IMG/VR virus record: IMGVR_UViG_2563366977_000005 | Span: 1 to 39,611 of that record | Origin: a virus | Taxonomy: Duplodnaviria; Heunggongvirae; Uroviricota; Caudoviricetes | DNA: 39,611 bases | Direction: 5' to 3' (one strand) | In this document: piece after piece, positions 35,914 through 37,574 of the stretch | How the letters are laid out: every line of letters starts with the position of its first letter | Numbering within the stretch: position 1 is the first letter of the stretch | Program-made: the position numbers and the translations under genes | Notes under the pieces: model-generated | What the model was told of the DNA's origin: nothing | What the model saw: only the letters and a program-made list of their open reading frames with translations | The model's database searches: none

Positions 35914-36127
35914 AGCAGAGTTATTTCAGAAAATATCGGCTCTCGCGACTGAATGCCACGCTATAGCATCTGAGCTTGATGTTGGCGATGAACGAACCGA
36001 GATGTTCGAAATATACAGTGTGCTGCGCAATCTCTGTCGGCGTGGCTACGCCACTCAAGTAGGGCGAATGACTAACCCACTACTCTCATCCTGTGATGAG
36101 GATGACTCGGATGAGGATGACGAATGA
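35906..36127 (+). CDS. Small protein (about 73 aa) with strongly acidic C-terminus (CDEDDSDEDDE), GTG start
   Basis: AGGAG 7 nt upstream of GTG; the upstream part of ORF 35729-36127 looks non-coding and overlaps the previous gene. Confidence 0.35.
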   Translation: MNKAELFQKISALATECHAIASELDVGDERTEMFEIYSVLRNLCRRGYATQVGRMTNPLLSSCDEDDSDEDDE

Positions 36128-36789
36128 TGCATAAATCAGTAGCCGGTGAGTTTCAGAAGGAAGTCGATAATACTACCGTTCTATTGGACGATATTTTAAG
36201 CATTCTCGCGCTGCTTGAGGCTGGCGATTGGTCAGAACATTGCACTAAAACAGAGCTAGGCGGTCGGCTTGAAAGAGAGATTACACGACTTATTGGTGAT
36301 GCGCAGGAAGCTACAGTCACTAGTTATGAGTTAATCGCTGAAGCCTGGCGTTTGATGGATGGACAAGATCCTAAAACCAGCGATTGGCATAGCAAGGCTT
36401 CGAAGTATTTAAATTCCAATAGGGTAGAAAAAGTTGATGATGTGAAACCGAAGCCAGTAGACCACGGTTTCCGCGATAACTGCGAATGCTCTAGTTGCCA
36501 GACCACGGCCCGTATTTGTTCCGAATTGACAGATAAGTCCAGCCTAATCTACGAAGTTAATGTAGGCGGTAATACATGGGTCGAATGCACAAGAGCTGCA
36601 TACGTAAGAGCAAAAGACAAGGGTGAATTAACCAGAGTTGTTACCAATCACCCAAATAATGAGCTTAAAGATCACCAGATTCGAGAACTGGTGAACGAGT
36701 TGAGGGATATTGCGGTTCAGTACCACGGAACGCAGCAATTGCGGGAGAAGATTGCCAGAGCAGTGAACAACTCAGTCCGTAAAAAATAA
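36124..36789 (+). CDS. Hypothetical protein (221 aa)
   Basis: Long ORF with balanced composition; ATGA overlap with upstream ORF. Confidence 0.6.
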   Translation: MMHKSVAGEFQKEVDNTTVLLDDILSILALLEAGDWSEHCTKTELGGRLEREITRLIGDAQEATVTSYELIAEAWRLMDGQDPKTSDWHSKASKYLNSNRVEKVDDVKPKPVDHGFRDNCECSSCQTTARICSELTDKSSLIYEVNVGGNTWVECTRAAYVRAKDKGELTRVVTNHPNNELKDHQIRELVNELRDIAVQYHGTQQLREKIARAVNNSVRKK

Positions 36790-37232
36790 GCAATAGTACG
36801 ATAAAGAGGCCCCATGCTCTTGATGGGGCCTGTAGCAACTAGCGTTATGGACGCTGGTTTACGTACTCAATGATCGCTTTGATAATCGCGAACATCGGCG
36901 GCACGATTTTGAACAGTAAGTTAACCATAACAGGCCTCACTTAGTTTTATCGCGCCTAGCTGCAAATACCTTTGGGCTTGCCTTTGCAGTTGCAATATCT
37001 GTAGTCGCCAGATACTTACGGCACGATTTCGAGTTAAGGTAAGGTTTTAGAGTCACCAAAAACCTGGACTTAAATCTTCTTTGAGAACAACGATGTTTAG
37101 TAAATGGTCATTATTACCTGGTATGACCACTCAACGTTTCTTGATGAATCCAGTACATTCGGTTAATCTTAATTCAGTCGCCAGATACTTATGGCTCAGG
37201 AACAGAGCCGCAAACTCTGTTTCCTTTTAAAA

Positions 37233-37260
37233 AGCCCAGCCTAGTCAACTGGGCTTTTTA
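37233..37260. terminator. Bidirectional intrinsic terminator
   Basis: AGCCCAG / CTGGGCT stem flanked by A4 upstream and T5 downstream. Confidence 0.65.
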
Positions 37261-37554
37261 ATGTCTATTTTTAACCCAATGAACCTTCAATACCGCAACA
37301 TCAGTGTCTTGCGAATTAAGATAGTGTGTATAGGTTATACATGCAAGTGCATAACTCTGTGGATAACTCAGGAAGGAAAAAGTAGCTTCCGCGCAATTTA
37401 GGCCAGACAAGGCTTTCGCAAAAGTCAACGGAGAGAAAAAATTTGTTAAAAATAACGTTTGTTGGAATTGTATATATTTATGCCTTTCAATAGTTAGCAT
37501 CTTATTAACATCTTTTTTAAGAGATAGAGTTCAAAAATATATAGCTTCAACATA

Positions 37555-37574
37555 TACTGTATGTATATACAGCA
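37555..37574. promoter_or_regulatory. LexA (SOS) box TACTGTATGTATATACAGCA
   Basis: CTG-N10-CAG with TA-rich spacer matching the E. coli LexA consensus; 17 nt upstream of the umuD'-like ATG. Confidence 0.7.

Follow-up and report, generated by a model that had tools for sequence, protein, structure and literature searches.

A candidate type I toxin-antitoxin cassette in an ORF-poor island of enterobacterial phage-plasmids and prophages

Organization of the island

The window analyzed here is a stretch of 39,611 nucleotides of caudoviricete DNA (IMG/VR record IMGVR_UViG_2563366977_000005), the end of which is formed by a prophage at the argW/dsdC site with torI as its excisionase gene. It contains an ORF-poor island (36790-37260) between a gene for a hypothetical protein and a umuD/humD-like gene, which an initial annotation had interpreted as a structured non-coding RNA locus or a set of protein-binding sites. 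The 800 bp between these two genes carry no annotation in either of the records inspected, namely those of E. coli 13C1065T and phage Cyrano. The neighbors and the features that we recognize in the island are:

36124-36789: gene for a 221-aa hypothetical protein, left neighbor of the island
36807-36831, minus strand: terminator-like hairpin with which the predicted peptide mRNA would end, AGGCCCCAT-7 nt-ATGGGGCCT followed by CUUUAUCGU
36845-36928, minus strand: candidate type I toxin ORF of 27 aa, MVNLLFKIVPPMFAIIKAIIEYVNQRP plus stop, "type B" of the family
36935-36940, minus strand: Shine-Dalgarno sequence GUGAGG, read from the sequence, with GAGG 6 nt upstream of the AUG
36949-36956, minus strand: leader segment GGCGCGAU, which forms the 3' strand of helix P1 and has a second complement in ORF codons 8-10
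36960-36989, minus strand: invariant leader hairpin CUGCAAAGG...UUUGCAG, kept in all homologues
36994-37017, minus strand: target hairpin, with the complement of the sRNA 5' end presented in its loop CUGGCGACUAC
37003-37022, minus strand: putative sRNA-binding site in the leader (repeat copy A), with about 75 nt between its 3' end and the AUG
37020-37026, minus strand: 5' strand of helix P1, UCGUGCC, overlapping the end of the sRNA site and part of the second repeat
37031-37076, minus strand: 5'-proximal leader hairpin, with the conserved block GUUUUUGGUGAYUC at 37050-37063
37141-37169, plus strand: predicted sRNA promoter, -35 TTGATG, 17-nt spacer, -10 TAATCT, with +1 6-7 nt downstream
37176-37262, plus strand: candidate antitoxin sRNA of about 87 nt, recognized by its fold and compensatory pairs
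37176-37195, plus strand: 5' antisense tail of the sRNA (repeat copy B)
37198-37225, plus strand: stem-loop 1 of the sRNA
37227-37261, plus strand: intrinsic terminator of the sRNA, bidirectional, with a 13-bp perfect stem
37591 onward: umuD/humD-like S24 peptidase gene, right neighbor of the island

Several of these elements had already been noticed as repeats and hairpins, and were recovered with small adjustments. The hairpin that follows the 221-aa gene has a 9-bp stem, rather than the 8-bp stem at 36808-36830 first described; it had been said to lack a U-tract, but on the minus strand it reads as a terminator-like site. The first direct repeat, AGTCGCCAGATACTTA(C/T)GGC, occurs at 37003-37022 and 37176-37195 with 19 of 20 positions identical, and the second, CGGCACGATTT(T/C)GA, at 36899-36912 and 37019-37032 with 13 of 14 identical; each is present in just two copies in the whole window, against chance expectations of 0.01 and 0.03, respectively. 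The inverted repeat CTGCAAA...TTTGCAG was confirmed at 36960-36989, where it forms the invariant leader hairpin, and the strong bidirectional terminator, initially placed at 37233-37260, spans 37227-37261. We also concur that the island is neither a CRISPR nor a type III array.

Similarity between lineages starts at the left hairpin and stops just past the right terminator, which defines the cassette as a unit of about 455 bp with one terminator at each end. The left hairpin retains its position and differs in sequence among homologues (e.g. AAAGGCCCAGAAATGGGCCTTTCCTTTT in loci L009, L019 and L025). In the window lineage a minus-strand promoter (TTGCAT-17-TATCTT) along with two DnaA boxes has been copied from the upstream region of E. 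coli nrdA; it is oriented toward the cassette and located immediately outside the shared bidirectional terminator.

Phyletic and genomic distribution

Sensitive BLAST searches with the core of the island (approximately 36930-37265) recovered matches of 68-84% identity on plasmids of Kosakonia, Citrobacter, Klebsiella and Enterobacter, always in unannotated gaps. The set was widened by pattern scans and an nhmmer profile to 51 loci representing 41 distinct cassettes, found on plasmids of E. coli, Citrobacter, Klebsiella, Enterobacter, Kosakonia and Kluyvera, on IMG/VR viral contigs and on an Enterobacter chromosome. The first pattern scan of genome contigs gave no matches, and a relaxed scan returned mostly chance matches along with hits from Kluyvera and Enterobacter. 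Among 5426 complete E. coli genomes the cassette is present in 115, at 106 places on plasmids and 10 on chromosomes; it was further detected in 98 PLSDB plasmids from six genera and in 42 IMG/VR contigs. The cassette is confined to mobile DNA.

E. coli 13C1065T has chromosomal copies of a larger segment of 700 bp surrounding the island (36700-37400), with 100% identity; this segment recurs at 99.7% identity in the 108-kb phage Cyrano, and is found at 121 plasmid and 33 chromosomal places in the 5426 complete E. coli genomes. The repeats of the island are conserved in its homologues; a lack of such conservation would have spoken against the initial annotation.

The peptide gene

The initial annotation listed only short plus-strand ORFs without Shine-Dalgarno sequences, but the minus strand holds a conserved ORF of 27 aa preceded by GAGG. 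Its ATG lies at 36928-36926 and its stop at 36847-36845; in the list of open reading frames it had appeared as a 31-aa frame with a GTG start. Each cassette encodes one or two such minus-strand ORFs of 26-28 aa behind a conserved leader, and the length, start and stop of the ORF are conserved across the 41 distinct cassettes. An AAGG, GAGG or AGGAGG sequence precedes every homologous ORF. The peptides fall into two types, with the patterns M.LLLLFLKLAHPV.AII.ALLGY.KDR (type A) and MV.LLLKIVPPMFVIINAIIEYVNQRP (type B). The window has type B alone, while the many two-ORF loci carry A followed by B as tandem paralogues, each with its own Shine-Dalgarno sequence, that of B being AGGAGG. In all 41 cassettes the type B ORF is free of frameshifts and stops. 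GTG serves as the start codon in one lineage, and three lineages have lost a start codon, in each case only that of the extra upstream ORF.

In the 27-aa group the variable sites are distributed over the three codon positions as 7/4/17. This signal by itself cannot assign the strand, because an antisense frame shares third positions with the ORF; what places the gene on the minus strand is instead the presence of Shine-Dalgarno sequences, the conservation of the stops, the tandem paralogues and the terminator that lies downstream. Two plus-strand ORFs were considered as genes and rejected. No Shine-Dalgarno sequence precedes the 24-aa frame at 36870, and although homologues keep this frame open, its stop and the frame beyond it vary from locus to locus; the 45-aa frame at 37093 is present in the window lineage only.

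The hydropathy profile of the peptide fits a single membrane helix followed by a polar C-terminal tail, with a best 19-aa Kyte-Doolittle window of 1.85; its hydropathy falls within the range of Ldr, DinQ, ZorO and TisB. Searches of Pfam, NCBIfam and PHROGs with the peptides gave no meaningful match. Public protein collections contain the exact peptide solely under the name "hypothetical protein", derived from a phage MAG.

The small RNA gene

The plus strand contains a discrete gene for a candidate sRNA. Its predicted promoter is conserved as TTGAAG-17-TAAGCT in distant homologues in which the flanking sequence diverges, and repeat copy B begins 6-7 nt past the -10 element, such that it would form the very 5' end of the transcript. 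The 87-nt RNA is predicted to fold at -34 kcal/mol (z = -5.6), and both of its hairpins show compensatory changes among 17 distinct sequences. For the peptide mRNA no convincing sigma-70 promoter was found on the minus strand of the window, where no site with at least 8 of 12 matches is plausibly placed and the best candidates reach 7 of 12. In other lineages a plausible promoter for the peptide mRNA is present (TTGAGA/TTTAGA-16-TTTAAA/TATACA).

The notion of a structured non-coding RNA locus thus holds with respect to a discrete small-RNA gene ending at a strong terminator and a highly structured RNA leader, and fails in that a peptide gene is present as well. A conserved protein-coding frame does run through the region, though only in the left part of the island and on the opposite strand. 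[quoted passage not shown]

The leader of the peptide mRNA

The predicted peptide mRNA has a strongly structured leader (z = -4.8 for the fold of the whole window mRNA), with the Shine-Dalgarno sequence lying within a local hairpin in the minimum free energy (MFE) fold. The transcript probably starts 15-35 nt upstream of the GUUUUUGGUGAYUC block, at roughly 37080-37100. In an RNAalifold consensus of 13 diverse mRNAs helix P1 (UCGUGCC with GGCGCGA) is 98.9% paired and closes a junction of two hairpins. One of these elements of the leader, the hairpin CUGCAAAGG...UUUGCAG, is invariant in sequence; since the cassette searches partly required this hairpin, as was the case for part of it in the later pattern scans, its invariance is partly by construction, but it is equally invariant in four homologues found by BLAST alone. 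The other hairpin of the junction is the target hairpin, the stem of which shows compensatory changes at pairs 48-70, 49-69 and 52-66 of alignment A4.

A refolding of the leader triggered by the sRNA was considered and rejected as the main mechanism. In this scheme GGCGCGAU, freed by sRNA binding, would exchange the copy of AUCGUGCC in the UTR for the one in the ORF and thereby close the ribosome-binding site. The two conformers lie within about 1 kcal/mol of each other in 5 of 9 homologues. However, the helix with the ORF performs no better than shuffled sequences, it is broken by a synonymous GTG to GTA change in L019 and L009, and blocking the sRNA site brings no change in the predicted accessibility of the Shine-Dalgarno sequence and AUG. 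We do not adopt this model, which would have accounted for the second (13/14) repeat.

Complementarity between the small RNA and the leader

As copy A of the first repeat lies in the leader of the peptide mRNA and copy B at the start of the divergent sRNA, the 5' end of the sRNA is the exact complement of a site in the leader, spanning about 75-97 nt upstream of the AUG. For the window pair RNAduplex predicts -38.5 kcal/mol with 20 bp, including one G·U. Across 19 distinct sRNA/target pairs, 97.5% of the cells of a 23-bp duplex are standard pairs, and 8 of the 23 duplex pairs have changed on both sides in a compensatory manner. None of 500 shuffles reached the observed values, and slid registers give 26-37%.

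At positions 8-17 of the duplex four sequence classes can be distinguished (GATACTTA, GATACATT, GGTTAACAAC and GTGTTTTAC), which are always matched between the two partners of a locus. This variable stretch of 8-10 nt, always changed on both partners, behaves as a specificity determinant that might insulate related cassettes from each other. Where copies A and B differ at positions 2-20, all differences are C/T or A/G in the orientation that gives G·U pairs. Such wobble-compatible differences are a signature at the level of RNA rather than of DNA and are not predicted by a DNA-binding site model. Hence the repeats, which co-vary between loci, are better understood as partners of an RNA-RNA duplex than as the protein-binding sites proposed at first. 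Against the pairing interpretation, co-variation of direct repeats could in principle stem from gene conversion rather than from selection on pairing.

Relationship to known type I systems

At the sequence level the cassette displays the general hallmarks of type I toxin-antitoxin loci, namely a gene for a small hydrophobic peptide with translation signals and an adjacent gene for a complementary sRNA with its own promoter and terminator. A scan of the window region and 11 loci with Rfam 15 at permissive thresholds gave only sub-threshold, shape-level matches, none of the families attaining its own threshold. The best of these in the window is AgrB (RF02891), at 27.6 bits against a threshold of 40 and 109.5 for genuine AgrB. 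OrzO-P (RF02083) had no match in the window at E<=10 and reached 33-34 bits in L008 and L018 (threshold 60), and RNAI scored 23-34 bits (threshold 47).

A close functional parallel is zorO-orzO of E. coli O157:H7, along with zorP-orzP, in which a small hydrophobic peptide, a long structured 5' UTR and pairing of the sRNA 5' end far upstream of the start codon are likewise combined. OrzO is an RNA of about 80 nt that is divergently transcribed. The cassette, for its part, has a peptide of 27 aa, an sRNA of about 87 nt, and a co-varying stretch within a pairing of 20-23 nt at the sRNA 5' end, with a site about 75-97 nt upstream of the ORF. [quoted passage not shown] However, the two systems show no sequence relationship and the peptide is unlike ZorO. 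Moreover, the description of zorO-orzO concerns the EHEC chromosome (PMC3919570), while the cassette resides on plasmids, phage-plasmids and prophages, and in many of its homologues two peptide ORFs follow one another behind a single leader. By analogy, then, the cassette resembles zorO-orzO in function (5' sRNA pairing with a specificity sub-region) and is not homologous to it.

The DNA layout is the same in the SOS-induced dinQ-agrB locus of the E. coli arsR-gor region, which also has one repeat copy in the toxin leader and another at the 5' end of a divergent sRNA. In the chromosomal dinQ-agrB locus these copies are 198 bp apart, and the sRNA of about 84 nt has a stem-loop and a terminator. 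DinQ has the same length as the cassette peptide, 27 aa, but the sequences are unrelated, and nhmmer and blastn detected no nucleotide similarity between the cassette and the chromosomal dinQ locus. No LexA box (CTGT-N8-ACAG, with at most one mismatch) occurs in 36790-37300; the nearest, at 37557-37572, belongs to the umuD-like gene, and LexA control of the toxin promoter of the dinQ kind is thus not seen. In tisB-istR-1 the sRNA pairs far upstream of a sequestered ribosome-binding site, for which a ribosome-standby mechanism has been proposed (summarized in PMC3919570). The cassette is similar in that its Shine-Dalgarno sequence is predicted to be sequestered in a local hairpin, with the sRNA site about 75-95 nt upstream, but there is no Rfam match to this system at E<=10, no LexA control, and the peptide is unrelated.

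With regard to the Ldr toxins, the peptide has no match to Ldr_toxin (Pfam PF13940) at E<=10, whereas genuine Ldr proteins score 86-94 bits. A profile-profile comparison with hhalign aligned the family with Ldr residues 13-35 (K/D-L-A/V-x-P...II...W/Y-x-N-R) over 21 columns, at a probability of 45.8% and a pairwise E of 2e-4. This likeness to the C-terminal half of Ldr is suggestive only. The polar C-terminal tail and the mid-helix proline are alike in the two, but the cassette peptides are devoid of the N-terminal 12 residues of Ldr. The Ldr antitoxin Rdl is a cis-overlapping antisense RNA and not a divergent sRNA. For hok-sok we found no Hok match in Pfam or NCBIfam, no AUG-initiated upstream ORF in the leader, and no sok match in the window. 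Given the absence of family matches, of similarity to the dinQ locus and of a LexA box, the cassette would act like a system of the zorO/dinQ/tisB kind while standing outside those families. String searches of the literature with the peptide and seed sequences, along with keyword searches, retrieved no description of it.

Functional model and alternative interpretations

[quoted passage not shown] We infer transcription of both RNAs, toxicity of the peptide, the mode of its repression and its biological role. In this model the minus strand would give rise to an mRNA of about 300 nt, comprising a leader of about 150-170 nt in a multi-hairpin fold, the 27-aa peptide gene and a terminator, while the plus strand would yield the divergent sRNA of about 87 nt from a gene about 80 bp away. 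The 5' tail of the sRNA might nucleate on the exposed loop (GGCGACU) and zip into a duplex of 20-23 bp. By analogy with zorO/orzO, tisB/istR-1 and dinQ/agrB, this duplex might block ribosome loading from the leader and/or be cut by RNase III, such that no peptide would be made. Were the supply of sRNA to fall, for instance through loss of the phage-plasmid or prophage or through shut-off of host transcription, the peptide would be translated and might insert into the inner membrane, resulting in cell arrest or death. Such an outcome would stabilize the mobile element or abort infection.

The same architecture could also serve a non-toxic peptide, such as a regulatory or accessory small membrane protein acting in transporter modulation, superinfection exclusion or lysis timing, with no addiction or abortive-infection module involved. 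A toxic function of the candidate is suggested by its size, hydrophobicity and architecture. Its overall GRAVY of 0.86 is below the 1.4-1.8 of DinQ, ZorO and TisB, and it has an internal lysine and a Pro-Pro pair; moreover, it matches no toxin family and has no recognizable toxin promoter in the window lineage. On the other hand, the type I systems compared here (PMC3919570; dinQ locus) show this very arrangement, with a dedicated, divergently encoded sRNA that pairs about 80 nt ahead of a very small hydrophobic ORF. Together with the restriction of the cassette to mobile elements, its intact state within a decayed prophage remnant and the weak profile similarity to the C-terminal half of Ldr, this makes a non-toxic role rather unlikely.

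It is still less probable that the island is a decaying remnant or dead cassette, unexpressed in this prophage lineage and conserved merely through the recency of the E. coli copies. Most of these copies are indeed at least 95% identical, the adjacent umuD-like gene is a pseudogene in the window, and no toxin promoter can be recognized in the window lineage. Nevertheless, the window retains an intact ORF, Shine-Dalgarno sequence, sRNA promoter, duplex and pair of terminators, all of which are kept at 55-65% overall identity in other genera, and the type B frame is undamaged in 41 of 41 cassettes.

A reading of the repeats at the DNA level, for instance as iterons or as operators bound by a replication or regulatory protein, with the hairpins incidental, can draw on some distant homologues that lie 1-2 kb from repA on plasmids and on a 7-bp inverted repeat (TGGTCAT-N11-ATGACCA) between the two promoters in the window lineage. 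It is nevertheless very improbable. The distance to repA varies, and no repA is found near the phage copies. There are just two repeat copies, and the start of one of them coincides exactly with the +1 of a conserved promoter, with a stem-loop and a terminator coming after it. The differences within the 20-nt core are solely wobble-compatible transitions and the interior is co-ordinately changed, and the ORF, its Shine-Dalgarno sequence and its terminator would be left unexplained.

Returning to the type I toxin-antitoxin interpretation, a more elaborate version is conceivable, if doubtful, in which the cassettes would form an unrecognized family specific to enterobacterial phage-plasmids, plasmids and prophages, with at least four allelic sRNA/target classes, two paralogous toxins per leader in many members, and a bistable leader in which GGCGCGAU pairs with either the UCGUGCC next to the sRNA site or the identical copy inside the ORF. 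If this were true, the specificity classes would let related elements coexist without cross-neutralization, and the bistable leader would explain the second repeat.

Implications

Annotation routinely overlooks type I toxin-antitoxin genes, and for about 100 E. coli phage-plasmids and several prophages the RefSeq, GenBank and PLSDB records leave the cassette unannotated. If functional, it would be a candidate maintenance or abortive-infection determinant of the Cyrano-type phage-plasmids of about 108 kb, elements that are widespread among E. coli from clinical and animal sources. Phage islands that are poor in ORFs and rich in repeats and hairpins should be read on both strands for peptides of less than 30 aa. 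The matched natural variants of the sRNA seed and its target also provide a ready-made compensatory-mutation series for studying antisense specificity; the best predicted target of each sRNA is its own leader or one of the same class.

Tandem peptide ORFs and small sites within the cassette

Many of the homologous cassettes contain two tandem paralogous peptide ORFs, with type A followed by type B (the two kinds of 26-28-aa peptide), which are served by a single leader and a single sRNA. This arrangement is encountered in the loci L008 (e.g. 2263-2392), L018, L005, L007, L069 and L078-L092. The start codon of the upstream ORF has been lost through an ATG to ATA change in L077, L081 and L088, with the downstream ORF remaining intact in each case.

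Two small sites are recognizable in the cassette of the window itself:

37106-37130: inverted repeat TGGTCAT-N11-ATGACCA with perfect 7-bp arms, flanked by the promoter of the sRNA on one side and by that presumed for the toxin on the other
36858-36886 (+): promoter-like site TTTACG-17-GATAAT, antisense to the peptide ORF and lying within it

The inverted repeat is confined to the E. coli lineage represented by the window, and the chance of encountering one like it is roughly estimated at about 0.1; the repeat may serve as an operator or may be fortuitous. As the -10 element of the promoter-like site is the reverse complement of the Ile-Ile codons of the peptide ORF, this site may be a by-product. 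If active, it would produce a cis-antisense RNA spanning the ribosome-binding site of the peptide.

An nrdA-promoter-like segment and a umuD/humD-like gene to the right of the cassette

The region adjoining the right end of the cassette contains the following features:

37318-37456: segment that is a copy of the E. coli nrdA upstream region, at 83% identity
37318-37456 (-): promoter within this segment, -35 TTGCAT, 17-nt spacer, -10 TATCTT, predicted start at about 37312-37316
within 37318-37456: two DnaA boxes, TTATCCACA and TTATGCACT
37258-37500 (-): 80-aa ORF covering the segment, with the bidirectional terminator as its end
37557-37572: perfect LexA box CTGTATGTATATACAG, 19 nt 5' of the umuD/humD-like start codon
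37591-38046: umuD/humD-like S24 peptidase gene, disrupted in the window

The ypaB/nrdA position matches the segment in every E. coli genome (5426/5426), and its counterpart in phage P1, located upstream of hot, is annotated as matching a region of E. coli that bears two predicted DnaA boxes. The nrdA-like promoter faces left, with the bidirectional terminator and then the cassette in its path. In the annotation of plasmid AP024133.2 the 80-aa ORF is entered as a hypothetical protein; it has probably been called spuriously across regulatory DNA. In RefSeq the identical chromosomal copy of the umuD/humD-like gene is labeled an incomplete pseudogene, and the next ORF contains an internal stop.

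Retention in a prophage remnant and possible plasmid-borne AgrB-like loci

In the chromosome of E. coli 13C1065T (L001, 1-9000) the argW prophage survives only as a remnant comprising intS, an acyltransferase, a tail-fibre fragment, an IS3 element and a copy of the 221-aa gene truncated at its 5' end. The cassette is nevertheless kept there at 100% identity, adjoining torI; this fits selfish retention of the cassette, though it does not count as evidence for it.

BLAST with the Rfam consensus of AgrB, the sRNA of the dinQ-agrB system, matched 952 places on E. coli plasmids besides the chromosomal dinQ locus, some of which may coincide with the present cassette. These sequence matches suggest that plasmids carry AgrB-like sRNAs or dinQ-like loci.
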